Positions 9,451 through 64,000 of a stretch of DNA of 64,000 nucleotides are shown piece by piece (within the stretch, counting starts at the first letter, position 1; each line of letters begins with the position of its first letter). The stretch covers positions 19,699-83,698 of the forward strand of contig JAKLFP010000006.1 of the NCBI GenBank assembly GCA_022711115.1, written 5' to 3'. The notes beneath the pieces were generated by a model. The model was given only the letters and a program-made list of their open reading frames with translations. It did not search any database and was not told where the DNA came from. This stretch comes from Candidatus Omnitrophota bacterium (GTDB lineage: Bacteria > Omnitrophota > Omnitrophia > Omnitrophales > Aquincolibacteriaceae). The translations under genes were made by a program, and so were the position numbers.

Positions 9451-9471
9451 AATGGTATATTGAATAGTATA
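9451..9471 (+). repeat. 21-bp direct repeat copy 1 (AATGGTATATTGAATAGTATA) immediately upstream of fic
   Basis: 20/21 identical to 10559..10579. A degenerate third copy (aatggcatactgagc) lies at 9430..9444. Confidence 0.6.
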
Positions 9472-9513
9472 TTATTAATGACCGCCGGTTCCAACCTGCA
9501 GAGGAGGAAAATA

Positions 9514-10551
9514 ATGAACTCGTTCAAGAGTGACAACCCAGAGCTGCCTTTGAGCTCCGTGTGGCTGATGAATGCTATTTCCGAATACAAAGGCAAGCAG
9601 GAGCTTTATACCAAACAGGCTCCTCAAATCCTTAAAACCCTTACGGAAATGGCTCTGATCGAAAGCGCCGAATCCTCTAACCGGATTGAGGGAGTCACAG
9701 TTGACAAAGACCGCCTGAAACCCCTTGTCATAGGCCATAGCAAGCCCCGGGACCGCTCGGAGGAAGAAGTGGCAGGATATCGCAAAGCTCTTGATCTTAT
9801 TCACATAAAATACGATGGCCTCAAAATAAACGCGAAGATAATCAAGGAACTTCACCATCTGTGCAAAGGGGAATCATGGGATGCGGGAAAGTGGAAAGAA
9901 AAAGATAATGACATTATCCGCAAGCATCCCAGCGGAAGAGTGGAAGTGATTTTTAAACCTGTAAGCGCACAAAAGACACCCGCGGCCATCGATCAATTGT
10001 GCCTTACTTACGAACACAGCATTGACCAGTTAAAATTTCCGTCACTTTATGCCGTCGCCTGTCTTATCTTGGATTTTCTGTGTATCCATCCGTTCCGGGA
10101 CGGGAATGGAAGGGTTTCCCGGCTCCTGACGCTATTGGCCCTTTACCAGCACGGATTTTCTGTAGGCAAATATATCAGCTTTGAACGCATCGTGGAGCAA
10201 TCCAAAGAAACCTACTACGAAACATTGAACAAAAGCTCTCAAGAGTGGCATAAGGGGAAGCATGATATTTTGCCCTGGTTCAATTATTTTCTCGGGACTG
10301 TGGTCAAGGCCTATAAGGAATTTGAAGAAAGAGCGGAGCACACCAGTCCTTCCCGTGGGGCAAAAACAGCCCTTGTTCAAGCAGCTATTGAGCGGCAGTT
10401 CGGCAAGTTCAGTATTTCAGACATTGAAAAGGAATGCCTGAATGTGAGCCGCATCATGATTAAAAAGGTCTTATCCAAGATGCAGACTTCCCAAAAGATA
10501 AAATGTCTCGGCAAGGGGCAAGCCGCCCGTTGGAAGCGATTGGTATCCTAA
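9514..10551 (+). CDS. fic: Fic/DOC family protein (AMPylase-type)
   Basis: Canonical Fic motif HPFRDGNGRVSRLL. ATG at 9514 is preceded by GAGGAGG. The listed ORF start at 9460 is a TTG inside the upstream repeat. Confidence 0.9.
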   Translation: MNSFKSDNPELPLSSVWLMNAISEYKGKQELYTKQAPQILKTLTEMALIESAESSNRIEGVTVDKDRLKPLVIGHSKPRDRSEEEVAGYRKALDLIHIKYDGLKINAKIIKELHHLCKGESWDAGKWKEKDNDIIRKHPSGRVEVIFKPVSAQKTPAAIDQLCLTYEHSIDQLKFPSLYAVACLILDFLCIHPFRDGNGRVSRLLTLLALYQHGFSVGKYISFERIVEQSKETYYETLNKSSQEWHKGKHDILPWFNYFLGTVVKAYKEFEERAEHTSPSRGAKTALVQAAIERQFGKFSISDIEKECLNVSRIMIKKVLSKMQTSQKIKCLGKGQAARWKRLVS

Positions 10552-10794: not shown

Positions 10795-10870
10795 TGGCTC
10801 CCCCGCCTGGGATCGAACCAGGGACACTGCGGTTAACAGCCGCATGCTCTACCAGCTGAGCTACAGGGGA
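10795..10870 (-). tRNA. tRNA-Asn (anticodon GTT), CCA encoded
   Basis: The reverse complement reads TCCCCTGTAGCTCAGCTGGTAGAGCATGCGGCTGTTAACCGCAGTGTCCCTGGTTCGATCCCAGGCGGGGGAGCCA. It folds as a cloverleaf with GTT in the anticodon loop, a GTTCGATCC T-arm and a 7-bp acceptor stem. Confidence 0.9.
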
Positions 10871-14606: not shown

Positions 14607-14655
14607 ATCGCATCGATCACGCTCGATTCAATGACCTCTAAAGGAGATAAATTTT

Positions 14656-15405
14656 ATGTATAAACTCGTTCTCATCCGTCATGGTGAAAGTGTTTGGAAC
14701 AAGGAAAACCGGTTCACGGGCTGGACGGACGTGGACCTTTCGGAAAAAGGCCTTGAAGAAGCGAAGGAAGGCGGCCGGGTCCTTAAAAAAGACGGCTATG
14801 TCTTTGATATCGCTTTCACGTCCGTTCTCAAGCGCGCGATCCGCACACTCTGGAATGTCATGGATCAAATGGACTTGATGTGGATCCCGGTGGTCCGCGA
14901 CTGGCGTTTGAATGAGCGCCACTACGGTTCTCTCCAGGGACTCAATAAATCGGAAATGGCCGCGAAGTACGGCGAAGAGCAGGTGAAGATCTGGCGTCGA
15001 AGCTATGATGTTCCGCCGCCGCCGCTGGAAGCCAATGATCCGCGAAGTCCGGCCTTTGACCCGCGCTATAAAAGTCTGAAAAAAAGCGAGGTCCCGCTGA
15101 CCGAATGCCTGAAAGACACAGTCGCCCGCGTGCTTCCCTTTTGGAATGAGATCGCGGCACCCGCGATCAAATCCGGTAAAAAAGTCCTGATCGCGGCGCA
15201 TGGCAACAGCCTCCGCGCTTTGGTCAAATATCTCGACCATATTCCCGAAGACGTGATCGTTAACCTGAACATCCCGACAGGCATCCCGCTGGTCTACGAA
15301 CTCGACAAGGACCTGAAACCGATCAAGCATGATTACTTGGGAGATCCGGAGAAGGTCAAAGCCGCGATGGAAGCTGTCGCGAGTCAGGGAAAGGCGAAGA
15401 AATAA
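14656..15405 (+). CDS. gpmA: 2,3-bisphosphoglycerate-dependent phosphoglycerate mutase
   Basis: N-terminus [32 protein letters not shown] is near-canonical GpmA, with the catalytic His in the RHGE block. 249 aa. Confidence 0.95.
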
Positions 15406-20613: not shown

Positions 20614-21507
20614 TTACTGTCTTTTTTCCAGAGCCAGGAAAATGCCATGGAGAATGGCTTCAGGCCGCGGCGGGCAGCCGGGCACATAAATATCCACAGG
20701 AACCGCACGATCCACGCCGCCCGCCACCGCGTAATTTCCGTCAAACATGCCGCCGCTAATCGCGCAGCTCCCGCAAGCCACCACAAGCTTCGGAGAAGGT
20801 GTTGCCTCGTAAGTTTTAACTAGCGCGAGTTCCATCTGCCGCGTCACAGGACCGGTCACAAGCAGCATGTCCGCGTGTCGCGGAGAAGCCACAAAATGGA
20901 CACCGAACCGTTCCGCGTCATAAATAGGATTGGAAAGATTCACGGCTTCGACTTCGCACCCATTGCACGAACCCGCGTCAACTTCGCGGATATGGAGAGA
21001 TCGGCCGAAAAGTTTTTGAATCTTTTGGCTTAATGACTCGCCGATTTCTTCCAGGGTCAGTTTGTCAGCAAAATCACCCTGCCGGAAGGCTGAGATTTCA
21101 TCCGGTTTTTTTTTGAAGTAAATTTTTTCCGTAGAAACAAAGGCTTTGTCTTTCCGGACATCAGACAAAGCGGAAGATAGTTCATGGCATAATTCTTTTT
21201 TAGTCCGGGCCGCAAGTTCGAATTTCCCTTTGAAGGAGATGGCCTGATACGGACAAGCTGGCTCGCAAAGCCCGCAGAAGATGCAGTCTCCGTAGGAAAT
21301 ATAAAAAGAACGCCTGGCTTCCTTTGCGTGGTCTGCGATCGTTAAGGCCTTGGTCGGGCATTGAAGCACACATTGCCCGCACCGCGTGCATTTGGCCGGA
21401 TCGATCTCAGGCGCGCCGAGAAATCCTTCGGTTGTTTTGGCAGCATGCGGCGCATACGGCAGCGTTGCTTTTCCAACGGCTAAGTTTTTCTTAAGAATCC
21501 TGAACAC
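20614..21507 (-). CDS. fused 2x[4Fe-4S] ferredoxin (HycF/HyfH-like) + NuoB/HycG-like small subunit of group-4 hydrogenase-related complex
   Basis: N-terminal CTRCGQCVLQCP and CIFCGLCEPACP. C-terminal GSCNGCEVE, FVASPRHADMLLVTGPVT, VVACGSCAISGG and YVPGCPPRPE match HycG/NuoB. Confidence 0.9.
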   Translation of the reverse strand: MFRILKKNLAVGKATLPYAPHAAKTTEGFLGAPEIDPAKCTRCGQCVLQCPTKALTIADHAKEARRSFYISYGDCIFCGLCEPACPYQAISFKGKFELAARTKKELCHELSSALSDVRKDKAFVSTEKIYFKKKPDEISAFRQGDFADKLTLEEIGESLSQKIQKLFGRSLHIREVDAGSCNGCEVEAVNLSNPIYDAERFGVHFVASPRHADMLLVTGPVTRQMELALVKTYEATPSPKLVVACGSCAISGGMFDGNYAVAGGVDRAVPVDIYVPGCPPRPEAILHGIFLALEKRQ

Positions 21508-21625
21508 TTAAAACTCCTTTTATTTTTTACCCGGAGGTTTCTGTCATTGCGAGGGTACGCAGTGCCCGAAGCAATCTCAGAGATCACTTCGTCGCTTCGC
21601 TCCTCGTGATGACGAGAAAGCCACC

Positions 21626-23203
21626 TTACCGGTCATTGCCGGCATAAGACAAATTGAAACTTTTATTGATCAAGGGAAAATCCGGTACGATATTTTCCAG
21701 GACCGCGTATTGGATCAAGGGCCAGTTCACAAAAGAGGGTGAATGGATTTTCCAGCGCGTGATTTTCCCTTCACGGTCTGTGGCAATCCAATGAAAACAT
21801 TCCCCGCGCGGAGACTCCACATAACCCAATGCGCTCTTCAGCGGCAAAATCGGCCTCGCCTCACTGCACAAAGGACCTTCGGGCATGGTGTGAAGGGCGT
21901 CATAAATCAGCTTGAACGATTCATAGACTTCTTGGATCTTTACTTTCATCCGACTCTCGACATCGCCTTCCTTGAACACAGGAACCATGAAAAAAAGCTC
22001 TTTATATGCGGCATAAGGATGATCGCGCCGAAGGTCCTGGTCGACGCCGGAAGCGCGCGCGACCGGGCCAACGCCGCCAAGTGTCTCAGCCACTTCCTTT
22101 TTGACTTGGCCTGTGCCTTCAATGCGGTCTACCAGGGAATCCACCTGCCAGAGGATTTGAATGATCGAATCAAAATCCGTTTTAATCTTCTGGATTTCTT
22201 CCAGAAACCTTTGTTTTTGGACTCCAGAAATGTCCTTTCGCACACCGCCCAAAGCGATGACGTTTCTCAGGAGGCGCGTGCCGGCCAGCCGTTCGTTGAT
22301 GCGTAAAAGAGATTCCTTGAGCCGCATAAGCTGGCTTGCGCCAAAACTGAACGCCGCGTCCAGGGAAATCCCGGCAATATCGCTCATGTGGTTGTGAAGG
22401 CGCTCCAGTTCAAGAAAAATAACGCGAAGGAATTGTGCCCGCTCGGGCACTTGAATATCGGCCAGAGTTTCCAGGGCCTGTGCACAGGCGGCGGCATGAG
22501 AAAAAGAATTGTCTCCGGAGATACGCTCCGCAAGGCAAAGGAGATGAGACGGTGATTTTCCTTCGCCTGCTTTTTCCGTGCCTTTGTGGGTGTAAAAGTG
22601 CCGGATCTCGAGCTTCACGATACTTTCGCCGGCCGAGGAAAAACGGAAATGACCGGGTTCGATGATGCCGGCATGAACCGGCCCGACCGGGATTTCGAAA
22701 ATACCTTCTCCTTCCACGCGTTCAAAAATGTATTGGCCGGAAACCCGCGGAATCTTTTGTTGAGATTGAAAATCTTTTTTAAACGGGAAATGGCCTCTGG
22801 GCCAGTCCTCGTGAAACACAAGCGATCTGGGATCCGGGAGGTTTCCCGCGACCAAGCCAAAAAGATCCTGAATCTCACGTTCCTGCCAATTGGCTTGCGG
22901 CAGAAAAGGAGTGACGGAAGGAAACACAGGATCGTTTTCCGGGATCCTGGCTTCAAGGATGATAAAAGAATCCTGCTGCGTATGGGAAAAAACATAAGAA
23001 AGCGTAAAGGCCTTGTTTTCCTTCCGTGTGTCCGAGGCAAAGAGAAAAACAAGGCGCATGGGAAGAAGTCCCGTGAGAAAGCCGACTGTTTTCAGAATCG
23101 CGTCTCGCGGGATAAGCACATGACATTGCTTTTCGGTCCCGCCTTCCAGTTCGCGGATCGTATTCCCGAATTTTTCTTTCAAAGCTTCGCAGACCATTTT
23201 CAT
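21626..23203 (-). CDS. fused NuoC-NuoD / HycE-like large subunit lacking the [NiFe]-binding cysteines (Ehr-type)
   Basis: The VGPVHAGIIEPGHFRF block is conserved. The N-terminal RxCGxCxxxH is replaced by RISGDNSFSH, and the C-terminal DPCxxCxxR by NLSYAGNDR. Confidence 0.9.
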   Translation of the reverse strand: MKMVCEALKEKFGNTIRELEGGTEKQCHVLIPRDAILKTVGFLTGLLPMRLVFLFASDTRKENKAFTLSYVFSHTQQDSFIILEARIPENDPVFPSVTPFLPQANWQEREIQDLFGLVAGNLPDPRSLVFHEDWPRGHFPFKKDFQSQQKIPRVSGQYIFERVEGEGIFEIPVGPVHAGIIEPGHFRFSSAGESIVKLEIRHFYTHKGTEKAGEGKSPSHLLCLAERISGDNSFSHAAACAQALETLADIQVPERAQFLRVIFLELERLHNHMSDIAGISLDAAFSFGASQLMRLKESLLRINERLAGTRLLRNVIALGGVRKDISGVQKQRFLEEIQKIKTDFDSIIQILWQVDSLVDRIEGTGQVKKEVAETLGGVGPVARASGVDQDLRRDHPYAAYKELFFMVPVFKEGDVESRMKVKIQEVYESFKLIYDALHTMPEGPLCSEARPILPLKSALGYVESPRGECFHWIATDREGKITRWKIHSPSFVNWPLIQYAVLENIVPDFPLINKSFNLSYAGNDR

Positions 23204-24672
23204 GAAACCACTCCTCCAGCCACGCGGCTCGCTTCCTGAAGCAGATGCTGCAACGGCCTTGGGATATAAAAACCCATCACCACGATCACGATCATGCCGA
23301 CCACAAGCACACTATCCATGAGAAAACTTTTTGCAGGCATTTCGGTTTTTTCGGTTTCGCCAAAAGTCATCCGGTTCGCTTGCCGGAGGAAACCGGTAAA
23401 GATAAGCGCCAATAAAACAAGCAGAATGGCGCACGGAATAAATTGTTTGGCCAAAAAGCCCGCGCTTAAAATACAGAATTCGCTGAAGAAGACGCTGAAA
23501 GGCGGCATGCCGGCGATGGCGAGAACTCCGAAAAAGAATATCGTTCCCAGAAAAGCGTTTTTGCGGAAAATCCCTTTCACCTTGCTGATCTCTTTGCTGT
23601 GAAAGAAATAGTACAAATGACCGGAAGTGAAAAAGAGCAGGGATTTCGTGAACGCGTGATTCACGATGTGGAGAATCGCGCCGTACAAGCCCAGCGTGCC
23701 GCCAAATCCAAGGCCCACGGCCGCGAGCCCCATATGCTCCACGCTTGAATACGCCAACAAACGTTTGTAATCCGCTTGCTCCATGATAAAAGGTACGGCA
23801 ATGGCCACCGAGAGTACGCCAAAGACAATCAATAGTGTGTCCGAAAATGCTGAATCCGTTGCGACTTTGGTCAGGATATGAAACCGCAAAATACCGAAAG
23901 TCGCGCAGCTCAAAAGCACGCCGGAAAGAAGCGCGCTCACAGGGGCGGGTGCTTGGCTGTGTGCATCCGGCAGCCAGGCATGGAACGGCGCAAGGCCGGC
24001 CTTGGTGCCATAGCCCACAAGAACAAAAATAAACGCAAGCCGGATGATCTGTGGATCCAGATATTTTGCTTTGGCGAGCAGAAAGCTCCAATTAAGTAAA
24101 AGCCCGGTTTCCCCGGATGCGACTTGTTCGACCGCAGAGTAATAGACCAAAATGACCCCAAAAAGCGCGAGTGCGATGCCCACGCTGCAAAGAATCAAGT
24201 ATTTCCACGCGGCCTCGATCGAACTTTTCTTGTCGTCCACATTCACTAAAAATGATGACGCGAGCGTGGTTCCTTCGATCGCTATCCACATCACCCCGAG
24301 ATTATTGGAAAGCACGGTCAGGAGCATGGTGAAAAGAAAGAGATGAAAAAAGAACGCGTAGCGGCGAAGTTTGGCCGGCGGGATGCCGGTCTCGCCTTCC
24401 TTGAAAAGATAACCGCCCGCATAGATCGCGGAAAGCAGTCCCACGCTCGGGATCAAAAGGACAAAAACGGCGGACAAGGCGTCCATCATAAGACTTTCTT
24501 TAAACGCGAATATGCGCGGGCCTGAAAAATTCCCGAAAACAAAAAACCAGGCCCCGATCGCGGACACGGCCGCACCGGCCATAAAGGTCAGACGCGTGGT
24601 CCTTTTGGGACAAGGGACCAGACACAGAAATGCAAAAGCAAGCGGTGTCCAAAGTATGTGATCGATCGTCAT
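23200..24672 (-). CDS. NuoN/NuoM/HyfF-like antiporter-type membrane subunit
   Basis: 490 aa polytopic protein. The GYGTKAGLAPFHAWLPDAHSQAPAPVSALLSG block is typical of the Mrp/NuoLMN antiporter family. Confidence 0.85.
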   Translation of the reverse strand: MTIDHILWTPLAFAFLCLVPCPKRTTRLTFMAGAAVSAIGAWFFVFGNFSGPRIFAFKESLMMDALSAVFVLLIPSVGLLSAIYAGGYLFKEGETGIPPAKLRRYAFFFHLFLFTMLLTVLSNNLGVMWIAIEGTTLASSFLVNVDDKKSSIEAAWKYLILCSVGIALALFGVILVYYSAVEQVASGETGLLLNWSFLLAKAKYLDPQIIRLAFIFVLVGYGTKAGLAPFHAWLPDAHSQAPAPVSALLSGVLLSCATFGILRFHILTKVATDSAFSDTLLIVFGVLSVAIAVPFIMEQADYKRLLAYSSVEHMGLAAVGLGFGGTLGLYGAILHIVNHAFTKSLLFFTSGHLYYFFHSKEISKVKGIFRKNAFLGTIFFFGVLAIAGMPPFSVFFSEFCILSAGFLAKQFIPCAILLVLLALIFTGFLRQANRMTFGETEKTEMPAKSFLMDSVLVVGMIVIVVMGFYIPRPLQHLLQEASRVAGGVVS

Positions 24673-24676
24673 GCCT

Positions 24677-25336
24677 TCATCCTTTCAAAACCGTCATATC
24701 GTCCGCGTCAATGCTTTCAAAAGCGCCGCGGATTTTAAAAACAAAAACACCCATAATCACCACACCCACCAGCGCATCGAAAAAGACCCCTATTTCCACA
24801 AGAAGAGGCATGCCAAACGTAATGGTCACACCCATAAGAAAAAGACCGTTTTCGATGAGGAGCAGTCCGAGGACCTGATTGATCGCCTTTTTGCGGGTCG
24901 TCATCATTAACATGCCGAAAAAAATCGTGGAGACTGCTAGCGGGATAAATTCGCCAAACGAAACCGATTTCAGGACCTTGCCTTCCCCTGTCACATAAAA
25001 GGAGACAAACACGAGCAGCACGGCCAGAAGCAGCGTGAACGGGATGTTGACATAACTTTCGATCTCTTTGCGGATCCCGAGCCGGCGGATAATCCTGAAA
25101 AAGACTTGCGGGATTAAGATGGTTTTCAGAGCCAGTGTCAAGAACGCGGGAATCAACAAGTGCTCTACATGATTTGTTAAAGCAATGAAAGCAGTAATTA
25201 GTGCGAGCAAAAAAGAATGGGTGGCATAAGCGCGAATGCTGGCCCCGATCTGCGGAGCGGCCAGCATCCAAAAGGAAACGATCAAAAGCATCATGCCGAA
25301 AAAGTGAATCAGCGAGGGCACGAATTCCGTGTTCAT
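24677..25336 (-). CDS. HyfE-like small membrane subunit (hydrogenase-4 component E family)
   Basis: 219 aa with about seven TM helices. Its position between the NuoH-like and NuoN-like genes matches the hyf order. Confidence 0.7.
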   Translation of the reverse strand: MNTEFVPSLIHFFGMMLLIVSFWMLAAPQIGASIRAYATHSFLLALITAFIALTNHVEHLLIPAFLTLALKTILIPQVFFRIIRRLGIRKEIESYVNIPFTLLLAVLLVFVSFYVTGEGKVLKSVSFGEFIPLAVSTIFFGMLMMTTRKKAINQVLGLLLIENGLFLMGVTITFGMPLLVEIGVFFDALVGVVIMGVFVFKIRGAFESIDADDMTVLKG

Positions 25337-26283
25337 ACGCCCCTCCCGATGATGAGTTGTCCCAGAAGAGACAAAACGGCCAGGACAAAAGCGACGGCCA
25401 AAAGGTCCGGAGCTCTAAAAAGCCGCAATTTCGCGGAATGAATCTCGATCCAGCCAATCACAAAAGCCAGGAAAAAGATTTTCAATAGATAAAGTCCGAT
25501 GCCCACGCCAAAAGCCGCGAACCCAGACATACCGGAAAAATTCCAAGGAAAGAAAAGATTGGCGAGCAGTGTCAGAAAAATAATCTGTTTGATCTGATGG
25601 CTCCATTCAATCAAAGCCAGATAACGGCCGGAATATTCCAGGATCATGGCTTCGTGAATCATGGTCAGTTCCAAATGTGTGGCTGGATTATCCATCGGAA
25701 TTCGTCCGCTCTCCGCGATGGTGACAATCAAAAGCGCGCCAAACGCCAAGCTCGTAAAAAATAAAATTTGAATGGGTGATTGCCAGGAAAAATACGAAAC
25801 AATCCCGTCAAGCGACAGGCTTTGGGTCCGGAAACTCAAAGAAAAAAACGAGAGAAGAAGTGCCGGCTCCGCAAGCGATGAAAGTGTCATCTCACGGCTC
25901 GACCCCATGCCTCCGAACGTGGTTCCGGTATCCAACGCGGCCAAAGTCAAAAAGAAACGTCCCAGGGCCAGGAGGTAAACAAAAACAATCACATCGCCTG
26001 TAAAACCAAAAAGAGAGACTGCTCCGGACACCGGCGTTAAAGAGGCTGCGCTAAGGACCGACGCAAAGAGCACGAAAGGCATCGCGTGAAAAATCCATGA
26101 TGCGGCTTCCGAGATCACCATATCTTTGTGGAAAAGCTTCCAAAGGTCCGTATAGACCTGCACCGGGCTAGGACCTACACGGTTTTGCGAGATAGCTTTC
26201 ATCTTTTTGATGAACCAGCTGAGTAACGGCGCGAGGGCCATCAGAAAAAGCACTTTGGCGCATGCAAAAAAAATGGAGATCAT
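25333..26283 (-). CDS. HycD/NuoH-like membrane subunit
   Basis: 316 aa with eight TM helices and a formate-hydrogenlyase subunit-4/NuoH-like profile. 4-bp overlaps with both flanking genes. Confidence 0.8.
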   Translation of the reverse strand: MISIFFACAKVLFLMALAPLLSWFIKKMKAISQNRVGPSPVQVYTDLWKLFHKDMVISEAASWIFHAMPFVLFASVLSAASLTPVSGAVSLFGFTGDVIVFVYLLALGRFFLTLAALDTGTTFGGMGSSREMTLSSLAEPALLLSFFSLSFRTQSLSLDGIVSYFSWQSPIQILFFTSLAFGALLIVTIAESGRIPMDNPATHLELTMIHEAMILEYSGRYLALIEWSHQIKQIIFLTLLANLFFPWNFSGMSGFAAFGVGIGLYLLKIFFLAFVIGWIEIHSAKLRLFRAPDLLAVAFVLAVLSLLGQLIIGRGV

Positions 26284-28478
26284 GAGGAATGCCCTCCCCA
26301 GAAAAGAAGAAGGAGAATCAACGTAATAAATATGTAACTGAGGTAGAGTTGAATATGGCCGGTCTGGATGTGTTTGGCTTTTTGTGAAAGACTGGAAATA
26401 AGATTGGCCAAGGGTTTATACACCCATTCATCCACAGGCTGCGTGATCTTTGTTTCAAAGCGTTGGGCAGTGCGAAGCAATTCATGCCCTTCATCTTCCA
26501 GCTCCACGTGCCGGGTCGGCTGATAAAGGAAAGAAAAAATCCTGCGTAACGGTTTGGAATAACCGGTCGCGGAATATTGCATGCGCGGCTCCAGCCGGGG
26601 CATACCGCAATCCCAGCTTGGCCCGATGCGGACCTTTTGTTTCCCCAGGAAGATCCGAAGCAATACCGCGGACCCAAATATGAATCCCAAAAGAATAAAG
26701 GCTAAAAGCAAAGGAGAAAATTGGCTCGCTTTTGATGGGGATATCAAAAAAAGTTTCTGAACAACACTTTCCATCGGAAGATTGACATTTGAAAAGGTAT
26801 TCGTGATTTTCCATAAAATTTTCACAACCCACGGAGCGGACAAGGCAAGCGCCAAACAACTCGTGGCCAGAATCCCCATGCCCAGTTTCATGGAACCGCT
26901 GATTTCATGCGCTCCGGTCGCATGCTTCGAACGCGGCATCCCTAAAAAGCTGATCCCGAAGGCCTTTACAAAACAAGTGGCAGCCAAAGCGCCGGCAAGT
27001 CCAAGCAGCGACGCCAGAACCGGCAAAAAGAAATGCATGCCCGTGCTTCCTGTCTCAATCCCAAGAAGAATCGCAACAAAAGTCATCCATTCACTGACAA
27101 ACCCGTTCAAGGGAGGCAGCGCGGAAATAGCGACTGCGCCTATCAGAAAATACGCGGCCGTCCAAGGCATTTTCTTGATCAAGCCTCCTAGTTGTTCCAT
27201 ATTCCGCGTGTGAGTTCCAGAAAGCACAGCCCCCGCACCAAGGAAAAGGAGACCTTTGAAAACAGCGTGATTCAAGATATGGAAAAGAGCCGCAACCAAC
27301 GCAAAGGCTGCATAAAGGGTTTGCCCCTGTGTTTTAAAAGCAAGACACATGCCGACTCCGAGAAGGATAATCCCGATATTTTCAATGCTGGAAAACGCCA
27401 GGAGCCTTTTTAAATCATGTTCCATTAATGCGTAGAGAATGCCCAGAAGCGTGGAAACAATCGCGATGGCAAGGATCAGATTCCCCCACCATCCGGGTGT
27501 GGCACCCAGAAAATCCAAAAGAAACCGCAAAAACGCATAGATGGCGGTCTTGATCATCACGCCAGACATAAGCGCTGACACATGGCTCGGCGCTTGAGGA
27601 TGCGCCTTGGGCAGCCAGATATGAAGCGGGATGATCCCGGCCTTAGTGCCGAATCCCAGAAGTGCCGAAAAGAAAATAATATTTTTAAAAACAGGCGAAA
27701 GAAAGCCCGCGCCGGCACGGAATGAGTCGAATGAAAAAGAGCCGGTATGAATATAAAGAAGCCAGAAGGCAGTCGAGATGAACACGGTCCCGATATGCGT
27801 CATGACCAGATAAAGAACCCCGGCTGATCGCGTCTCCGGTTTTTCATGTTCAAAAATCACAAGAAAATAGGAAGCCAGGGACATGAGTTCCCAAAAAAGG
27901 AGAAAATAAAAGGCGTTCCGGATCGTGACCACGAGAAGCATGGCCAGGATGAAAAGGTTATAGAAAAAACCCAAAAGGGCGATGTTTTTCTTGTCCTGGC
28001 ATCCATTTTCTTTTGACAAAAGGTTGCCAGGACTATCCTGACTTTTATTTTCTTTTTCTTTATGGTAGTCAGGATTGCCCCAATTTCCACACTGTGGAAA
28101 TTGATTGGTATTGGGACTAGTCCAATTAACCTTTGAATTTTTTGATGGAGAATTGGATTTGCCCTGATATTCACGGGTATAACCGATCGCAAAAAGAGAG
28201 GTGGCAAGCGAAAGGAAAGAAATCACAAAAAGAAAGAAGGCGGAAAAGAGATCCGCTTCCAACCGGAGAGGACCGACCGGAAGGCTTCCCGCAATTTCAA
28301 GCACCCAGGATTTCCCGGTCAAAAGGATATAAAGTGCAAAAACAACACCTGCCGTTCCTGCCAACGAGGCTAAAAGATGCGTCGAACGGTTCGCCTTTTC
28401 TCCGTGTTGTTCAAAAAGAAAGCCCGCGATTGCCCCTAAGATATGAAGAGAAATTTGCGCAAAAAAGAAAAATGCCAT
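26280..28478 (-). CDS. HyfB/HycC/NuoL-like membrane subunit with about 65-aa hydrophilic insertion
   Basis: The GFGTKAGIIPLHIWLPKAHPQAPSHVSALMSGVMIKTAIYAFLRF block matches the NuoL family. An unusual hydrophilic loop (YTREYQGKSNSPSKNSKVNW...) sits after helix 3. Confidence 0.9.
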   Translation of the reverse strand: MAFFFFAQISLHILGAIAGFLFEQHGEKANRSTHLLASLAGTAGVVFALYILLTGKSWVLEIAGSLPVGPLRLEADLFSAFFLFVISFLSLATSLFAIGYTREYQGKSNSPSKNSKVNWTSPNTNQFPQCGNWGNPDYHKEKENKSQDSPGNLLSKENGCQDKKNIALLGFFYNLFILAMLLVVTIRNAFYFLLFWELMSLASYFLVIFEHEKPETRSAGVLYLVMTHIGTVFISTAFWLLYIHTGSFSFDSFRAGAGFLSPVFKNIIFFSALLGFGTKAGIIPLHIWLPKAHPQAPSHVSALMSGVMIKTAIYAFLRFLLDFLGATPGWWGNLILAIAIVSTLLGILYALMEHDLKRLLAFSSIENIGIILLGVGMCLAFKTQGQTLYAAFALVAALFHILNHAVFKGLLFLGAGAVLSGTHTRNMEQLGGLIKKMPWTAAYFLIGAVAISALPPLNGFVSEWMTFVAILLGIETGSTGMHFFLPVLASLLGLAGALAATCFVKAFGISFLGMPRSKHATGAHEISGSMKLGMGILATSCLALALSAPWVVKILWKITNTFSNVNLPMESVVQKLFLISPSKASQFSPLLLAFILLGFIFGSAVLLRIFLGKQKVRIGPSWDCGMPRLEPRMQYSATGYSKPLRRIFSFLYQPTRHVELEDEGHELLRTAQRFETKITQPVDEWVYKPLANLISSLSQKAKHIQTGHIQLYLSYIFITLILLLLFWGGHSS

Positions 28479-42623: not shown

Positions 42624-45600
42624 TTATGCGGCTTGTTCGATGACTTTTCGAGTTTCAGCGGCAATGCTGATATTTTCAATGAATGCGAGAATGCCACTCA
42701 CAGGCTGGATGCCTTGCGGTATTTGTTTTCTTTCAAGGATCGTGTTTAGGGCACCAAGCAAGGCAAAGGCTTTTTGTCTTTCATCAACATCGTGATAAAC
42801 CAAAAGAGTACGGTCGGCATGTCCGGATTTAGAAACAACCGGTGCAAGACTCTCCAGATTGGCTGTCCCGCTTGAACTCATATCGTAAACAAGAGCGCGT
42901 TCTGTTGTTTTCTGAATAAATCCCGCGATCTCTGTTTTCTCAGATATGACGACAAGGTTCACCCCCCGACCCATCACCCCTTTTGCGTCACGCATTTTCA
43001 TGATCTTTTTGATCAATGCCTGTTGAAATCTCGTCAGCTCTGTTTGCGCGGCATGGGGCACCACGATCTGCACCGGTGCGAATTTATTCCTGGTCATGAA
43101 CTGCATCAACACCTGCAGTGACGGATCCTCAAGAGACGGAATATTCTTAAAAATGACCGCGATCCTGTCCGCACCGGTTTCCGCTTTTGCTTTATTGGAA
43201 AGCAACGCAAGATAATTCCGTTGCCGAGTCAAATGAGGGATCGCATAAGCGTTGGGTATCAGTTCAGCCAAAACCCTATTCAAGATCTCTTGCCCCATCG
43301 CCAACGCCGAACTCGTCCGAAAGACACCTTCTGCCGCTTTTGTTGCTACTTGTTTTTCAGATTCAGAAACCTGTGTAACGAGCGGCGCGGATACGGCGGC
43401 AGAAGTTTGAGGCTTCTGCACGCCGCTCCGCAACTGCGCTTCGTCGAGAATTTTGTGTGTTGTTCGTATTTCAGAACGTTGCGAGGGAGCGGTAGTGGAA
43501 GCATCTTGCTTCATACCACCAACTCCCTGCGCTTCGTCGAGAATTTGAAAATCCGATCTCTTTCCTATTTTTTTCCGGCCATTGAGCAGATCATGGAGAA
43601 AATGTTTTTCAAGGTTTGCAAGAAAAGCCGCGTGTTTGTCCTGAGAATGCTGCAAATCTTTGAATTTTTGTTCTGCTTCCTGATTTAAAACTTCGAGACG
43701 TTCTTGGGTCCATTCATTTTTGACTGAACCATCAGGATTTAGATAGGGTTTCAGAAATTCTTTTCTATAATCCGGAATGGAGATACCGTAACTCACATCA
43801 AAAACAACGCCGTTTTCTTCCAGGACATTTTGATCCGAAATAAAAAGGATATTCTTATCGCCATCGAGCACCACAGCGTCGCCTTCCTTTAATCGCTGCC
43901 CATTCTTGAAAATGATTCCTTGGTCTTTGCCTGTCAGGTCCCACCGAGAGACTTCGAGATTGATAAGTGATGGAATTCCAGAGAGGCGGGTCAAAACAGC
44001 CTCATGGGAAGAGCTATTTCCATAGCTGGTAATCAATCCTGAATCCGGATAATTGAAAAGAAGCGTCAGCGCTTGTTCCTGATTGCCCGGATGAGAAACA
44101 AAAACAACGGGTTTTTTCTGGGCTATAAGCTGTTCCATTCGATCCCGATTCCATGCGAGTTGCCCCTGCAAAGCGCCAGGGGTCGATGCCAAACCACGCG
44201 TCAGGGGTGTTGCGATAATAGGGTCTTTGACTTTATAAAGTTTTCTCGATCTTAACCGTTCTTGAACTTTTTCGATGCGCGGGATGGCGAGGCGCTCTGA
44301 AATTTTTCCTTTCGTTAATTGCTCACGAAGAAAAGCGATTTCTGCCTGGGGAGAGAAATTCATTTTGCGTGTTTGTGTAAAATACAATTTTCCGCCGCTC
44401 ACGACAAATTCGAATTCCTGAGGGCCGACTGCTTCCTCCAGTTTTTTCCTGGCCTCTAAAAGCTGCTGGAAAATGGCCGGGGCTTCCTGCTCAAGCTCCT
44501 TGATATCACGACCCGCTTCACCACCTGTCATCAACTCATCGCCGGCAGCATTTTCAAGATAACGTCCGAAAAGAATGTCCTGATTGGTATTCGGATCTCT
44601 TGTTGAAATAACGCCTGAAAAATAAAGAAGGAGCTTCCTCTCGTTGCGACGCGGCGAGTTGGGATCACGATGAGGATCTTGCCCACTGACCCACCGCTGA
44701 ATAATCAAAGGTAAATCAAATTTGTCCGGGATCCTTTCCCTCGCTCTGAATTTTTTAGCGGCTTCTGATTCCCATGCCTGGGCTGTTTCCTGGAGTGTCC
44801 CCTTAAAATCATAGCGGACGCGACGGCTGCTTAAGATGCCCGGCATCGACTGCTTGGGATTGCTTCGGATAATCAATGCCTCTTCGCGGGGATAGGACTC
44901 CCACCATTCGGGAAAATGAACCCGGATACCCGCGTGACGCAATTGCTGATCGATAAAAGGAAAATATTTTTTTGCTTCCTCGTTCGGAAGCCCGACCAGT
45001 CGGGCAACAAGATCTTCTGAAAGCACAATGCCCGGAGGATAAGGAAGCCCCAGTTTTTCAAAAACCAAAAAACCTGCTTCTTTGTTGCCCATACCAGGCT
45101 GATAGGGCCCTTTCCCCAGTTGCCTTGTCCCTGCTTTGACTCTTGCTTCGATATCGGAAAATTCGTTTAGGAGGATCCTTCGCATGAGAAGATCCCCTGC
45201 GCGGCAATAAAGCGACATGAGATCGCCGAATTCTTTAGGAACAACCCAATAATCTCTCGCGACTCCGTTCATGTAATGCCGGGTCGGTTCCCAGTTTTCA
45301 ATGCCTCGGTAATACAAGAAGTAAGCATTGGGAATGCCTAATTTTTCTTTAAAAAAGACAAGTCGAGAATCTTCTGTGATCTTCGTCGTTCCTTGTTGAA
45401 GAGTTCCCAGGAATCGCCTGTCATCTTCTAAATCATCCAACCGGGCATCCCATTCAGCAGTTAAAATTTTTACCATCGAGGGCTCTTCGGCTTGCGCCGG
45501 TCGAGGCAGATCCTGCTTTACATTTTGATACACTTCAGCCAGCAATTTTAGATCCAAATCCGGATTAATCTTGATGGCGGCCTGATAAACAGCACGGAAC

Positions 45601-48600
45601 TTTTCATCCGGAACTTCCAGGATGCCAAGAGCTTTTATTTGCTGTTCCAAAGTACCCTTGCGCTTTTCAACCTCTGAACGCATTTCGGATCTTTGTTGAG
45701 GCATTTCGATGCGGAGATCTCGAATTTTACGAAATAACGGCCCATATACAATTTTTTGTGCCACAAAAGCCAAAAACGCCAGCGCTATGCTTCCCTTAAG
45801 GGCAAAGATCCAAGGGTGATTGTCATTAAATAGAATTTTTGAAGCCAAAACAACGGCCAGTCCGGCCCATCCCCCGGCCCAACCGGCTCTTTTTAATATG
45901 TGACGTTTAAGCAATCCCAAAATTTCGTATCGAGCATCATTCAGATTGTCCAGATCCGGCTGAATCAAATCAGCGAAAACCCCTTGTCTTTCCGAGGATA
46001 ACTTGGCTAAGTAGATTTGAATTTGTTCCCAAGAAGTGACGGCTTCTTGAAATTGATCTATGATGGCGGAAAGGCTTGTGTCCTCATCTTCGAAAAAAAC
46101 AGAATCTCTGCCGTCGATTTTGGTTTTTAACGTTCGGACCATCGTTTGAAATTTTTGAAGTTCCCAACGGATTTCACCTTCAGGCATGTCTTCTTCGTCT
46201 AAGTGCCGACGATTCGGGCTTTTCGTCCGCATTTCCGAACGAGGCATAAAATTTATTTTAAATCCGTATGCATTCAAGCGCTCAATGATATTATCTTTCC
46301 CTTTCGCGCCTATGTCATAAAGGTGATTTACCTGTTCCTTGGATAATGCCCGGAGCTCACCGATGGTTCTAATACCATTCCGATGAAGAGCATTGGCATT
46401 GCGCACATCCAATCCGAGAAGCTCAATCTTGTCATTATCGGTCAGATGCTTTTCTCGTTCGCTAAGCCCAGGCAATCCATTGACCGCCAAACGGTTACGA
46501 ATATGCCGCAATGTTTTTGGCGCCGCTTTTCCTAAACGCGAAAGTTTGTCTATGGAAACCGCCAGCAACTCGCTGATCGGCGACATACTGCTTATTCCAA
46601 GCCGAAATAAAACTTTCATGGCCTTAGGATTTAACCGCAAATACCGGACCGGATGTTCCGGTGCGAGGGGCCTTCCGGCTTTATAGATCTCGTAATAGCG
46701 TTCCATTTTCCACAAAGCGTTTCGAAACCGGAACCAAGCGGTTTTTGCCCCGCTGATTCCTTCTTCGCGGGCAAATTGCGCAATGGATAAGGGCGTTTCA
46801 GCCAAAAAGAGCCTCCAGATCATATGTTTTTGCCTATCCGTTAAAATCTCCTGGGATCGCACGGCAAAATTTAAATAATCCAAGCTTCTCAAAAAAGGAT
46901 ATTCTTCTTGAAGGCGAGCTATAAAATTCGTTTCGCGATTTGACGACGATCCCGACCGCATCTCGGCACGGTTTTGTGGAATCTCCGAACCTCTTTGAAG
47001 GGATGAGGCAGAACGGGCTGGAGATGGAATACTTCTATTACCAATGCGCTGATCGCCTTGGTAATAAACCAATGTTTCGCCGGCAATCACCGCAGAAATC
47101 GGGCGGGGCGTGCCCCGGACGGTTGCGCCAACTTGACGTTTTAGCAATTCGTTGGCAGAAACAGAGGTCACAGGCTGCCAATCCCCCGCCTTAAAAATCC
47201 TTTGTTTTTGATTTCTTACTTTATCTTCAACAAAAACTTCCGAGGCAAAAAACTGCTGACAGAGATTCATCACCTCAGGTTCCAGAATGCCCCAAACCAC
47301 CATTGAAAACCGCTGCTCTGCAGCGCGCCGGCTAAGGGCATTCAAAATAGTTTTGGCAATCCCGCGACCGTAATATTGCTTGTAGGAATGATCCTCCTTA
47401 CTGCCTATGGGGTAAAAATTAATAACGGTCAGTCGCCTAAAAAAAGGAAGTGTCATTTCCTTAAAGGTGACTTTTCTTTCGGTGTGAGTCTGGCCTTCAA
47501 TAAAGACTTCCACCTCATAGTATTTTTCAAAAAAATCCACATTCTCTTTTCGCAAAACCAATGTCACATCTTCATGGCCGTAAAGATTTTTCAGTTCAAT
47601 CCTTTCAAATTCTCCCCTCCCGTCCCTGCCGTAAGTATGTCTTTCCCACGTCACTTCAGGATTTTTTCCATCATGTACTTCAACCAACCTTCCGAGCCGG
47701 TCAAAAACATAAATATTTCCCGAGGCTGGATTAAACGGATCCTGGACCTGCCATTTATTACGAGCAAGGCCTGAAATCTTTTTTAAAAGTGTTAAAACAG
47801 AAAAATTACGCAGTTCTGAACGAGCCCGCGGTATTTCCTTCCCGGAAAGAAGAGAGCCAAGTCCCGCCGTATGAATCACTCGTTGCAATTGTCTCGCTCT
47901 TTCTTCAGTTTGATCGGGCAGCCATTCCGCAGCATAAAAAAAGTAAAGCGTACTGACAACAGCGATTATGCTGCTGATGATCGTTCCGAGCACAAACGGC
48001 AGTATTCCGGAAACAACGAAGAACCCGCTCGACACAAAAAGCGGGATAGCAACCGCCATGAGATTCCTCTTTATTTTCTTTTCTGTCTTGATGGAAAGGT
48101 CATTCAATATGCGAACATAACGCTTCGCTAATTCAATGAAACTCGGCGCCCCTTCTCTTGTGTTCGCCATTTGACCCCACGCGAAGAGACCCTCTCCCAA
48201 TTGTTTCCATTTCTCTTCATTGTAATAGTCCCTCGGAAGACGGCGATGTATGTCATTCGCTGTTAAATGCACTCCCCCGCGTTCCTCAACCATACTCAAG
48301 ATTTTATCAATCACGCCCAAGGAGAATATTTCGGTTTTTTTATTTTTAAGCAACCACTGAAGCGCTTCAATGCCCTCTTCTGCAATGATAGCTTGATCTT
48401 GTTTTTGAACGTTTCGCATCTCAGAACGGACTGGTTGAGAGCGTGGGACAAGTCTTAGCTTAGGCCTTTCTTGAAGCTGTTTGTTCCAATCGGAAAATAC
48501 TTCGAAAATTTTGGTTTGGGCTGCTCCATAAAGTTCGCGACGTGCTTTGTTATTTCCGTCCTGCATTGCGCTCATTTGTTCACGATCAAGCGCAAGATCG

Positions 48601-51600
48601 CTGATAACATCCCCCAAAACCTCGGGAGTAAAATCAGTCCCCAATGTCAGAACCGCTCCATGATCCGCATAAGCTTTTACCGCCATGGCGCTGTCGGTTT
48701 CTCGCTTCCCGGAAAGATCATTATTTGTGAAAGCACCGGTAATGACCGGCGCGTAAGATTCGGCGAGATTGTGAGCGGGATTGGTTCCGTTCTGAAGAAG
48801 TGTATTACCGTAGACCGCCAACCTTGCGGCTTTTAAAAGATTGGTCAGTTCCCCTGTCGAATTTAAAACAAGGATCCAGGCATTTTGATTCTTTTGGCTT
48901 GTGGTTTTACGAAGGCGATATGGAATTCCGGCATTTTGCCAGGTTTCTTCGAATTTTTTCTCGTTAAGCAAACTCGGAGCCACAACAATGGGATATTCTT
49001 CGAGATCCAAAAGTTTGTTCTGATAAATGTGTTTGAGAGTCGCCACCACAAAAGGAAGTTCGTCGGCATGGATATTCGCAAAGACAATGGGTGGATTTTT
49101 CAACCCGAATTCTTTAAGGACGGCTTGCGTATCAACCGTCAATATGGCTTCCAGATATTTGGCGGGTTGGTGGGTATGAAGCGTGATCTTTGCAGGAGGA
49201 CTTCGGGAACGAAGGCGAATCCAGGGATGATCCGGAAGAGTATTATCAGCAGTTAAGTAAAACGTGAACGAATTGAGCGGATCATTTTTCTCCTCATCTG
49301 CATTAAAAAACACCACACCTTCTTTATCCTGAAATGCTTTTTTAATAGAAGTTGCATTTTCGTTTCCATGGATGATCTTTATTAAAACGCCAGGCCAATG
49401 CTCGCGAATTATTTCGGTTAACATGCCGGCGGTATTTGAAAATTTTTCCGTGTTCTTCGAAACCCAAATCGACACAAAATCCGGCGTTTTTCCACGCAGC
49501 TCAGAGCGTTTTTGGTCACCCGGCGAAGTCGTAACACGAACCGGCATCCCAAGTTGATCGTGCTGGTAAACAATGAGCGTGACCTTGGCGCCCTGTGTTA
49601 TGGGGCTTGTACCTATCAATTCAAAACCGCCGAAGCCGTCTGACTTCCAAGCTTTCCCTTTGGATTCAATAAGGCCATCTTGAGCCTCGGTGCCGAATAT
49701 CCTGAATCCGTTTCCGTGAATACTGATAATTTCTTTTTTATGTTGAAGCAAAAAAGGAATATCGGAAATACCAGGCCCCGAATCCTTTCCGACCAGTTCA
49801 ATACCGGTTAACCCATCTGAGGTGTTGACCTGACTGATCTCAATCGAACCACCTTGCCCGTGTTTATGGATATTCAAAGCAAGCTCATGGACAAGATTGC
49901 CAAGTCTGTTCTGTTCTGCCATAAAATAATCCCGCTCAGCCGCAATATGCCGAACCTCGGTTTCTATATCCGGCACTTGCAACCGGTCAGGAATATTTTT
50001 ATCGATGATAAATGTCCGGATTTTCTCGCGGGAAACAATTCTAAAAATACCCGTTGGCGCCCGCATTTCGGAACGAATGGACGGCAAAGAATCTTGATCC
50101 CCTGAGAATGGCTCCTGAAAAACGCCCGAAAATGTAGAAAGCGTGATCATTGTTTTACCCTGTTCGCGAATAGAATCCATTTGAACATGGACCGGAAAGT
50201 CTATTTCATAAAACTCCGGCTGAAAACTATCAAAACCTAAATTTTTAAATTGTTTTTTGACTGTTCCGAGCAAAGAAGAGCTCCCGAGATTCAAAACCAC
50301 GATCATGACGTTGGAACTGCCGTTATTTCTGACGCTTGCCTTGAAAACAAGGGCAAAATCATTCCCCGCCTCCAGCAATAGGGCCTTGGTCATGTCGATA
50401 TCAATTTTAGTATCCGCGTTCAACCCATTCACAAACCGGTTCAACGCCATTCTGTCCGGCACATCCAACAGATAACCTTTGTGGATTCCCGCAATAAGCG
50501 GCATTGTCGCCTGATACTCCAAAGTTATAGAGGTGCGCAGTTCCGAGCGGGTTTGTTGCGATTTTTGTTGCCGGTAATAGGTCTTGATCAACACGCGGTA
50601 AAACTGGCGGAAGGCTTCCGCTGTATTCTTATCCTCCGCAGGTCTTAATTTCAGCGTCTCTCTGAAAATGTTTTCGGTCGCATCAAGAGCATCTAAATGT
50701 CTTAAAAAGGACTGTCCGACGTAAGCGATATGAATCACCGTGAATTTGTCACGTAATGAAAGATCCCGAAGAGGGTATCCAGCATCAGCAAATAAGGTCA
50801 GAATCTGCTCAAAAATACGAAGACCATCATCCCCTGCCGCAGCAACAGCTGCCGCCGCGTTAAGAATCCGAATTTTATCTTTAAACTGCATGCCGCTGAG
50901 ACTGTTTTTGCTGATGGCTAATTTTTCTTCTAGAAGCCCCAGTAAGGCTTGGAAAAGAAGGTACCCGGCCTGTCCGTTAATCACGGCTGGATAAACAGCT
51001 CTTAGCAAACGGTTTTTTTCTGTGTCCGTTTTCAAGTCAGGAAATCTTAGCCCGAAAGTAACCGCCAATTCTTCAAGAATTCTCCGAAAAACCTCCAGAT
51101 TTTTCCCTTGATTACCTGCTATGTGATAAGCAGCTCTCAAGAATTGAATGGCCTGTTCTGCATCCGCGACGGGCTTTTCTTTAGACGATAGTGTGAAAAC
51201 TTTATTAATCCATCGGAGGATAATCCTGAAGGCATCGAATCCCGCATCCCCCTCCGAAGCTACTTGACTAGCCGCGGTCGTCATCTGAATCATTTGCGAG
51301 GGAGGCAGATTATGTCTTTCTTCCGAACCAAGATGAAAGTAATCTCCAATAAAGCGAAGCGCCTTCGCGTAACGCTCATATTCTTCTTTGCCATGTTGCG
51401 AAAGACTATGGATCGCGCTAATAAGATCGATTTTTTGAAAAGTTTCGAGCTTTTCCGCAATCCCGTTACCACGTCCCCAATAGTGGACTGTGAATGCTAA
51501 TATGTCTCGAAAAACAGTGAAACCTTCTTCTCTGCCTTGGGTTACTACAGAAGCTGCTATAATCAGTTTCATTTTCTGTTTTACTTCCATGCGACGAACA

Positions 51601-64000: not shown

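Follow-up and report, generated by a model that had tools for sequence, protein, structure and literature searches.

A 64,000-nucleotide stretch of DNA from a Candidatus Omnitrophota bacterium (hereafter the window) carries on its minus strand most of a giant open reading frame (ORF) whose product, P0001, is divided into 22 modules by copies of a single pentapeptide, R-[SA]-E-[MVLI]-R; 20 of these modules (M1-M20) lie within the window. This junction pentapeptide is under selection at the amino-acid level, and comparisons between related genes indicate that it marks the boundaries of evolutionary modules that are shuffled independently of one another. Our best reading, to which we give an even chance, is that the gene encodes a chromosomal polyprotein that would be cut at its junctions by a lineage-specific protease, the cutting being a step that we infer. 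A first-pass annotation of the window, made from its letters alone, had described the ORF as a mosaic of metabolic, signalling, membrane and RNA-polymerase-like domains; it missed the organising principle, namely the conserved peptide that delimits the modules, and it is this feature that is new.

The giant ORF is real and coding throughout

The giant ORF occupies positions 42624..64000 of the minus strand, where its frame is stop-free over 42627..63998 (7124 codons), terminates with a stop codon at 42624-42626 and remains open past the right edge of the window. The ORF listing gives 42624..63836, or 7070 aa counted from the first in-window ATG, and the first-pass annotation had rightly taken this as the minimal size of a single uninterrupted gene. 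Using an exhaustive HMMER search, the complete product was found to be NCBI entry HOW59847.1, a protein of 7976 aa from a Candidatus Omnitrophota metagenome-assembled genome (MAG) with MNRLEKQLG as its N-terminus, and its NCBI name derives solely from its RNA-polymerase alpha C-terminal domain. The window thus holds the C-terminal 7124 of the 7976 codons plus the stop, while the N-terminal 852 codons lie beyond it, so that residue n of the window portion is residue n+852 of P0001. The JGI copy is identical in sequence and is called 4 codons longer (7976-7980 aa).

Since the frame is stop-free, since the longest open run in the remaining five frames of the region is only 232 codons (the first-pass annotation had put the antisense maximum at about 220) and since the order GC1>GC3>GC2 holds uniformly in each of the seven 3-kb blocks of the gene, we conclude that it is coding throughout. 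The locus is moreover identical in the NCBI, JGI, ENA and Logan assemblies, on contigs of up to 161,773 bp, showing that it is not an assembly artefact; the chimeric or misassembled contig that the first-pass annotation had raised as a point to check is thereby excluded. A word-indexed search of 5.8 billion proteins with M1, M2-M8 and M12-M16 gave no matches, the database seeming to lack these families, and this scarcity of detectable homologues for most modules could have suggested a chimera or a decaying pseudogene that stayed open by chance. Considering the identical sequence in four independent sources (contigs up to 162 kb), the 7124 stop-free codons with uniform codon periodicity and the homologous giant ORFs with the same junction in other MAGs, we regard this explanation as having a negligible chance of being right.

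A strict pentapeptide recurs between protein-sized modules

The pentapeptide R-[SA]-E-[MVLI]-R is found in 19 in-frame copies in the window, where shuffles predict 0.1, and in 21 copies in full P0001. Elsewhere in the window (42.6 kb), all six frames are free of it, and inside the gene it has a single off-frame copy. In ten junction-bearing proteins (P0001 and those described below), the internal modules have a median length of 405 aa (interquartile range 272-640), which is the size of ordinary proteins, and the 12 residues on each side of the junctions are depleted in hydrophobic residues (0.26 versus 0.34, p<0.0005), the linkers that carry the pentapeptide being hydrophilic.

Two junctions separated by only a short spacer, RSE[VI]R-S[NS]LRTE...(APV)RAE[VL]R, were also observed as a double junction, at 57855-57914 in the window and at positions 503-568 and 929-1021 of a related locus (L002), hence in two genomes. 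The codons of its RSE[VI]R and S[NS]LRT parts are reverse-complementary and form a local RNA hairpin, in which an apparently compensatory G-to-A / C-to-T change distinguishes the window from L002.

The same junction bounds shuffled modules in related giant proteins

A scan of GTDB species genomes with M1 identified four loci (L002-L005) that are 40-45% identical to it, of which two bear an Omnitrophota/Omnitrophica label. In L002, L003 and L005, the giant ORFs are limited by their contigs, span 3792, 5164 and 2311 codons and contain the pentapeptide in 10, 9 and 5 strict copies, respectively; at L004, the M1 match is a 1363-aa ORF in which SGARLP stands immediately before the M1-like domain. 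The exhaustive search added P0018, P0135, P0055 and P0004, with 11, 10, 5 and 2 copies, so that seven giant proteins besides P0001, with otherwise mostly unrelated modules, carry an RSExR junction. P0135 and P0055 are complete genes, likewise located amid housekeeping genes.

Of the window modules, M1 alone is common to P0001 and the L002, L003 and L005 ORFs: the other 19 (M2-M20) have no match in these ORFs, which hold patatin, AAA_5, metallo-beta-lactamase, RidA, MarC and helix-turn-helix (HTH) modules instead. An alignment of the M1 module ends shows a conserved end of the domain, then 8-14 hypervariable residues, then the retained pentapeptide and, beyond it, unrelated sequence. Between L002 and L003, homology begins or ends exactly at the pentapeptide, alignments between modules end where junctions lie, and an M3-type kinase module has a junction at either end in both P0001 (residues 1604-1868) and P0018 (residues 6272-6531). 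Altogether, these comparisons show that the pentapeptide marks the boundaries of independently shuffled modules.

Two further features of these relatives were recorded. P0018 (aa 1-553), P0135 (1-549), P0055 (1-508) and P0004 (1-434) begin with a common module at 36-54% identity, which has a signal/anchor helix, QDAH...E / GGFH motifs and no Pfam family, and which resembles the TraB/Tiki/ChaN superfamily by eye only. An AbiEi/AbiEii toxin-antitoxin pair (L010:13841-15905) lies directly downstream of P0055, with a LemA/Peptidase_M48 pair 4 kb beyond.

Other giant proteins carry their own recurring peptides

The dikinase-like module M19 has 2464 relatives in a library of 1.84 billion proteins, standalone (~700 aa) as well as within other giant proteins. 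Other long proteins with an M19-type module lack RSExR and have recurring peptides of their own. SGAR[LM]A occurs in 6-7 copies in P0012, a complete 4015-aa gene, and [AT]SSPV in about 4 copies each in P0080 and P0041, both assignments resting on recurrence and spacing. For three further types, the position relative to the M19-type module could be checked and was found to be equivalent to that of the P0001 junctions: the module starts right after ASSAV (ASSAVG; 5 copies in P0006), ends right before NAAVL (3 copies in P0013) and ends right before AASLG, one of the 12 copies of [GA]xSLG in L007 (5832 codons). In a standalone 715-aa M19 homologue (L009), the stop codon falls at the same point where the junction sits in the giant proteins. 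In an unbiased scan, the three-copy NAAVL scored no higher than patterns in proteins without an obvious junction.

A common core [SA]-x-[VLIM] was considered for all junction types and dropped, as [GA]xSLG does not fit it; a hand check led us to reject the idea that one DNA motif, read from different frames or strands, underlies the several peptides. Motif-spacer-motif pairs similar to the double junctions also exist in P0012 (SGARLA-ATRPSTASPAVREP-AGSRLA) and in P0080. Many proteins with an M19-type module end with a conserved ~70-aa element, 'GGIDL...(F)DP...GFTPVIINI.P...LG', which is absent from P0001 and may be a sorting or secretion signal (carriers: P0002, P0005, P0007, P0008, P0010, P0011, P0014, P0015, P0016, P0031, P0037, P0044, P0054, P0080 and the L004 ORF 7439-11527). 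An exosortase gene of the EpsH family (L006:22117-23154) lies directly downstream of P0012, and the same genome has a second giant gene (L006:1-656), whose 3777-aa product carries helicase, HATPase_c and epimerase domains and whose end lies 9 kb upstream.

Selection acts on the junction peptide

Over the 48 junction DNAs compared, drawn from 5 genomes, every nonsynonymous position is invariant, the synonymous third positions hold 0.13-0.48 bit and the flanks hold about none, so that at most ~10 of the 15 junction bases are fixed, all of them nonsynonymous. The folding energy of junction RNA is the same as that of control positions (p=0.74), and RNA structure as a general feature of the junctions was rejected on this ground. 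Since nonsynonymous positions are fixed while synonymous sites and flanks are nearly free and RNA folding does not differ, the signal lies at the level of the peptide. The L007 junctions lead to the same conclusion: the invariant Ser of [GA]xSLG is written AGC, AGT, TCG and TCC, thereby using both the AGY and the TCN box, and Leu and Gly are written with 4 codons each, so that amino-acid-level selection is the only explanation for this Ser.

We weighed on this basis whether the 15-nt junction could instead be a nucleic-acid element, either a recombination site for in-frame cassette exchange or an RNA-processing site, of which the peptide would be a by-product. Such an element could account for the module-swap breakpoints of L002 and L003 at the pentapeptide, for the first Arg being CGY in 35 of 43 junctions and Ser being TCN in 35 of 37, for the GC-rich SGARLA junctions that are alike at the DNA level and for the hairpins of the double junctions (RSE[VI]R-S[NS]LRT) with their apparently compensatory change. 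However, it fits poorly with the nearly free synonymous sites and flanks, with folding energies indistinguishable from controls, with a pentapeptide confined to one strand and one frame and with an [GA]xSLG Ser that draws on two unconnected codon boxes, while breakpoints at linkers are equally expected from selection for intact modules. We therefore consider a nucleic-acid element improbable.

The junction could also be the site of a translational event, such as 2A-like peptide-bond skipping, programmed pausing or internal re-initiation, which would yield separate chains from a fused operon. Very long ORFs are presumably hard to translate fully, so that release during translation would be beneficial, and the codon at position 4 of the pentapeptide is always NTN and often ATG, GTG or TTG. 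Nevertheless, many of these codons (GTT, GTC, GTA, CTT) are not start codons, and a Shine-Dalgarno sequence plus start codon within 40 codons after the junction is not enriched (6 of 19 junctions versus 20% of controls). Known skipping and arrest peptides require a longer nascent-chain context, whereas the sequence upstream of the pentapeptide is not conserved. An event of this type thus appears very improbable.

P0001 may be a chromosomal polyprotein

Considering that the junction peptide is invariant, that it differs between proteins and probably between lineages, that it lies in exposed linkers and that it sits at the boundaries of shuffled protein-sized units, a sequence-specific reader is needed. 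The simplest such reader would be an endopeptidase, by analogy with viral polyproteins or MARTX toxins. In the model that we propose, P0001 would be synthesised as one chain, whose 22 protein-sized units comprise enzymes, a scaffold of repeats, a DNA/RNA-polymerase-binding module, a dikinase-like module and two membrane hairpins; a sequence-specific endopeptidase, co-evolving with the pentapeptide, would recognise the chain there and cleave it. Processing, whether co- or post-translational, would release about 20 individual proteins, of which two would remain anchored in the membrane and the rest, as P0001 has no signal peptide, would be soluble and cytoplasmic. The scissile bond may be the one between R and S/A, or the one between R and a small residue after the motif, both being compatible with the junctions, and the candidate protease may have its gene in another part of the genome or may be M8, with its unverified JAMM-like signature.

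Several points weigh against this polyprotein reading. Cleavage is itself inferred from sequence comparison. HExxH, GDSGG and subtilisin motifs were sought in P0001 and none was found, leaving the non-canonical and unverified JAMM-like string of M8 as its only protease-like signature. The 42 kb of neighbouring genes yielded no protease either, and no protease module or neighbour is common to all junction-bearing giants. In L003, Leu follows three junctions and would be destabilising under the N-end rule if the chain were cut directly after the second Arg. At the DNA level, the SGARLA junctions are unusually GC-rich and conserved, and the mild codon bias over the 43 junctions of the window, L002, L003 and L005 (CGY for the first Arg against ~40% expected, together with the TCN bias of Ser) is more than peptide selection alone can explain; the last Arg of the same junctions is spread over all six codons.

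Autoproteolysis through the Ser of the pentapeptide was rejected, as Ala replaces it in 6 of these 43 copies and in 11 of 11 copies in P0018. Multi-pass membrane modules with HExxH in a hydrophobic helix were noticed in P0018 (aa 592-1033), P0135 (aa 1589-2018) and P0012 (aa ~984); they may be cis-acting proteases, resemble Peptidase_M50 only at E=0.056 and are absent from P0001 and P0055.

The absence of a protease in P0001 or its 42 kb of neighbours would also suit a chain that stays whole, namely a membrane-tethered 'beads on a string' megaprotein that co-localises activities and whose pentapeptide serves as a docking, modification or hinge motif for a non-proteolytic partner. P0001 has two transmembrane (TM) hairpins and no signal peptide, and nearly half of the giant proteins catalogued by Nielsen & Lui 2026 were read as TM-only, inner-membrane-anchored proteins with cytoplasmic enzyme domains (bioRxiv 10.64898/2026.06.07.730766). 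On the other hand, a passive linker would have no need to keep the same five residues in genomes at 40% identity when the linker around them is hypervariable, and relatives do not preserve the order and content of their modules, which speaks against an ordered assembly line. Standalone homologues of modules also end exactly at junction positions, and the replacement of Ser by Ala shows that a modification of this Ser would be inessential. We see an uncleaved scaffold as a serious possibility, albeit a rather unlikely one.

Extending the polyprotein reading beyond P0001, we tentatively propose, with somewhat less than even confidence, that a sizeable share of the enzymes and regulators of Omnitrophota, and possibly of other lineages, is expressed in the form of chromosomal polyproteins. 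Site-specific proteases co-evolving with the lineage-specific junction peptides (RSExR, SGARLA, ASSAVG, xSLG, and possibly SSPV and NAAVL) would cut these chains, and genes would exchange modules at the junctions as in-frame cassettes. If so, this would be an undescribed mode of bacterial gene organisation and expression, alternative to the operon. For P0001, cleavage would make the gene a bacterial chromosomal counterpart of viral polyprotein expression and would explain the usefulness of ORFs that are too long for reliable end-to-end translation. The strict junction peptide gives objective module boundaries for annotating and folding giant proteins, makes their processing testable through the neo-termini predicted at the junctions and offers a handle for a protease search by phylogenetic profiling against junction type.

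Comparison with known giant proteins and polyproteins

The enzyme mosaic itself is of a kind already known in Omnitrophota, and this makes too strong the first-pass statement that no described family combines such domains. Giant ORFs, which are a hallmark of the phylum, were reported across Omnitrophota classes with a function that is 'poorly understood' (Seymour et al. 2023, PMC10066038), and a 'multi-enzyme metabolic cluster' class was defined, in which methyltransferase, HATPase_c, GNAT and HAD are among the commonest Pfams and in a catalogue of which 46% is TM-only without signal peptide (Nielsen & Lui 2026, bioRxiv 10.64898/2026.06.07.730766). P0001 fits this class: it belongs to the same phylum, it is a single huge ORF amid ordinary genes, it combines many unrelated enzyme and regulatory domains of which none dominates by copy number, it has TM helices (by Kyte-Doolittle) without a signal peptide and it is poorly conserved between genomes. 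It differs in that its 7976 aa are below the operational 10,000-aa threshold of the catalogue and in that these two papers contain no recurring junction peptide, linkers, cleavage or polyprotein; the words 'cleav', 'linker', 'polyprotein' and 'junction' appear nowhere in Nielsen & Lui 2026.

Cleavage of Omnitrophota giant proteins was independently proposed by West-Roberts et al. 2023, who stated the cleavage points as unknown, left open whether the proteins act as one chain or are cleaved and noted that the lack of cleavage points blocked structure prediction of the pieces (bioRxiv 10.1101/2023.11.21.568195). The archaeovorins and dockerin-type giants of that study resemble P0001 as Omnitrophota giant genes for which post-translational cleavage was proposed; they exceed 30,000 aa, are TM-rich, carry dockerin, C39/S8 peptidase and SecA-like domains and were read as extracellular, cell-wall-degrading proteins. 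P0001 has none of those domains: Pfam scans of all its modules gave no dockerin, TSP3, C39/S8 peptidase or SecA-like domain. Searching the literature for the motif strings, and for Omnitrophota together with polyprotein, brought up no relevant work, and the junction peptides appear to be unreported as far as the library could be searched.

With the polyproteins of viruses (picornavirus 3C, potyvirus NIa and flavivirus NS3 sites), P0001 shares one long ORF, protein-sized units, a short, strict and lineage-specific peptide in exposed linkers and small spacer peptides between two sites; unlike them, it lies on a bacterial chromosome, matches no viral contig, has no recognisable cis-protease and varies in module content. 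In the MARTX toxins of Vibrio, an internal cysteine protease domain (CPD) frees the effector modules by cutting after Leu in the inter-effector linkers. P0001 is likewise a large bacterial protein with variable, shuffled and unrelated enzyme modules joined by linkers (cut in MARTX) with a short sequence rule, but it lacks a secretion signal, and its repertoire looks metabolic or regulatory rather than toxic; Pfam scans that included its N-terminal 852 aa as modules N1 and N2 gave no RTX repeats and no CPD, and no type I secretion system (T1SS) genes were found among its neighbours. Phages and conjugative elements reportedly encode polyvalent proteins, described by Iyer, Aravind and colleagues in 2017 as very long proteins with many unrelated enzymatic domains, for which proteolytic release of domains is said to have been proposed. 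Polyvalent proteins are found on mobile elements with a characteristic set of MuF, ART, methylase and helicase domains, whereas P0001 has housekeeping genes as neighbours and no mobile-element location was found for it.

Domain content of the modules

All modules are given here from the N-terminus, on the minus strand. Outside the window, the N-terminal part of P0001 adds two modules, one of them a coiled coil and the other weakly assigned to the class-I methyltransferases (Methyltransf_23). Pfam domains scoring above their cut-off are PRK, Acetyltransf_1 and RNA_pol_A_CTD, while Hydrolase_3, PEP-utilizers, Methyltransf_23 and HATPase_c_2 are near or below it, each of the seven being present once. 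The uridine-kinase-like, GNAT, alphaCTD and dikinase modules, the two membrane segments and the 13 tandem repeats of the first-pass annotation were recovered; its phosphatase and GHKL assignments held weakly, and four others of its thirteen labels, which rested on short motifs, found no Pfam match even at E<=5 (adenosine deaminase, JAB/MPN, PI-PLC X-box and sigma-70 r4). Pfam scans of every module gave no condensation/adenylation/thiolation or KS/AT/ACP domains, as would be found in nonribosomal peptide or polyketide synthases (NRPS/PKS), and the view that the protein is not an adhesin, RTX or Rhs protein stands.

M1 (62712..63998), which is P0001 module N3 cut by the window edge, has no Pfam family. 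M2 (61746..62711; junction RSEMR 62697-62711) is HAD-like, with Hydrolase_3 at 20.3 bits against a cut-off of 20.9 and S6PP at 17 bits, so that the HAD phosphatase is only weakly indicated. M3 (60951..61745; RSEVR 61731-61745) is a PRK/uridine-kinase P-loop kinase (24.4 bits, cut-off 22). M4 (59649..60950; RSELR 60936-60950) contains the SSHNTY motif on which the PI-PLC X-box had been based, its sole match being a weak NAGPA (E=0.0056). M5 (57915..59648; RSEVR 59634-59648) has HxH, HLGD, RIGHG, ESTPxN and SDG motifs in the canonical order of adenosine deaminases, which is a lead only, as it has no Pfam or PDB match. M6 (57870..57914) is a mini-spacer, RSEIR-SSLRTEDDSV, directly followed by the junction RAELR (57855-57869) of M7 (57312..57869), a GNAT acetyltransferase (25.1 bits, cut-off 20.7).

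M8 (56244..57311; RSEIR 57297-57311) holds the JAMM-like HSHP..PS..D string, read before as JAB/MPN, again with no Pfam or PDB match. For the PDB, phmmer queries at E<=10 with M5, M8 and M13-M14 gave no match, and single-sequence AlphaFold2 models of M8 and M5 were unusable (pLDDT 39 and 37). M9 (54267..56243; RAEVR 56229-56243; 659 aa) has a phosphoribosyltransferase-like string, 'IFYDDATASGT', recognised by eye only, and M10 (53055..54266; RSEMR 54252-54266; 404 aa) has no family. M11 (50550..53054; RSEVR 53040-53054) consists of tandem ~47-aa helical repeats, 13 strong plus 1 weak, and M12 (50076..50549; RSELR 50535-50549; 158 aa) has no family. M13 (49509..50075; RSEMR 50061-50075) is GHKL-like, of the anti-sigma-kinase type, with HATPase_c_2 at E=0.18 as its only match, and M14 (48429..49508; RSELR 49494-49508; 360 aa) has no family.

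Two hydrophobic hairpins were detected by Kyte-Doolittle analysis, the first in M15 (47823..48428; RSEMR 48414-48428; ORF residues ~5316-5355) and the second in M18 (45693..46241; RSEMR 46227-46241; ORF residues ~6040-6085), while the N-terminus of P0001 (MNRLEKQLG...) is hydrophilic. Between them, M16 (46971..47822; RSELR 47808-47822; 284 aa) has no family, and M17 (46242..46970; RAEMR 46956-46970) carries RNA_pol_A_CTD at 48.6 bits, preceded by a possible HTH where a sigma-70 r4-like domain had been suggested. M19 (43479..45692; RSEMR 45678-45692) is dikinase-like, with a PPDK_N-type ATP-grasp and a PEP-utilizers phosphohistidine domain; the latter reaches 22.0 bits against a cut-off of 23.1, and homologous modules score PPDK_N at 78-118 bits. 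M20 (42627..43478; RSEIR 43464-43478; 284 aa) is C-terminal and has no family.

Genomic context

The remaining 42.6 kb of the window consist of ordinary chromosomal genes: neighbours include YfhO, a TPR protein, methyltransferases, a Fic protein by tRNA-Asn, an ABC transporter, a DEAD-box helicase, rubrerythrin, a HemN-like enzyme, MsrAB, Fe-ADH, RlmD, a flavoprotein and YgiQ. Genes for proteases, integrases, transposases or phage proteins were not found in this 42 kb flank, in agreement with the housekeeping surroundings noted in the first-pass annotation. Its mention of Omnitrophota among the lineages with giant genes named the right lineage, as the adjacent YgiQ and TRAM/RlmD genes carry the NCBI name Candidatus Omnitrophota bacterium and M1 homologues sit in Omnitrophota/Omnitrophica MAGs. 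No relatives of the giant protein were found among IMG/VR viral contigs, and PADLOC (PHROGs not being searched) gave two weak local matches, PglW (70 aa, E=1.2e-5) and mad8 (E=0.003), and no defence-system assignment. A defence-system or phage origin was rejected, given the weakness of the PADLOC matches and the lack of a match in viral contigs.

Other features of the window concern genes away from the giant ORF. A cluster at 20614-28478 (minus strand) resembles a membrane-bound group-4 [NiFe]-hydrogenase of the Hyf-Mrp type and contains Oxidored_q6 plus Fer4, a fused 30-kDa/49-kDa large subunit, NADHdh and HyfB/HyfF-like antiporter subunits. The Fic/DOC-domain gene (9460-10551, plus strand) adjoins the sole tRNA gene of the window, tRNA-Asn GTT (10795-10870, minus strand), and the three ORFs immediately upstream of it (4308-4823, 7294-7803 and 8223-9191) are without Pfam family. 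Finally, two ORFs of ~230-250 aa on opposite strands overlap almost fully (14638-15330, minus; 14656-15405, plus), the minus-strand one having no Pfam family.

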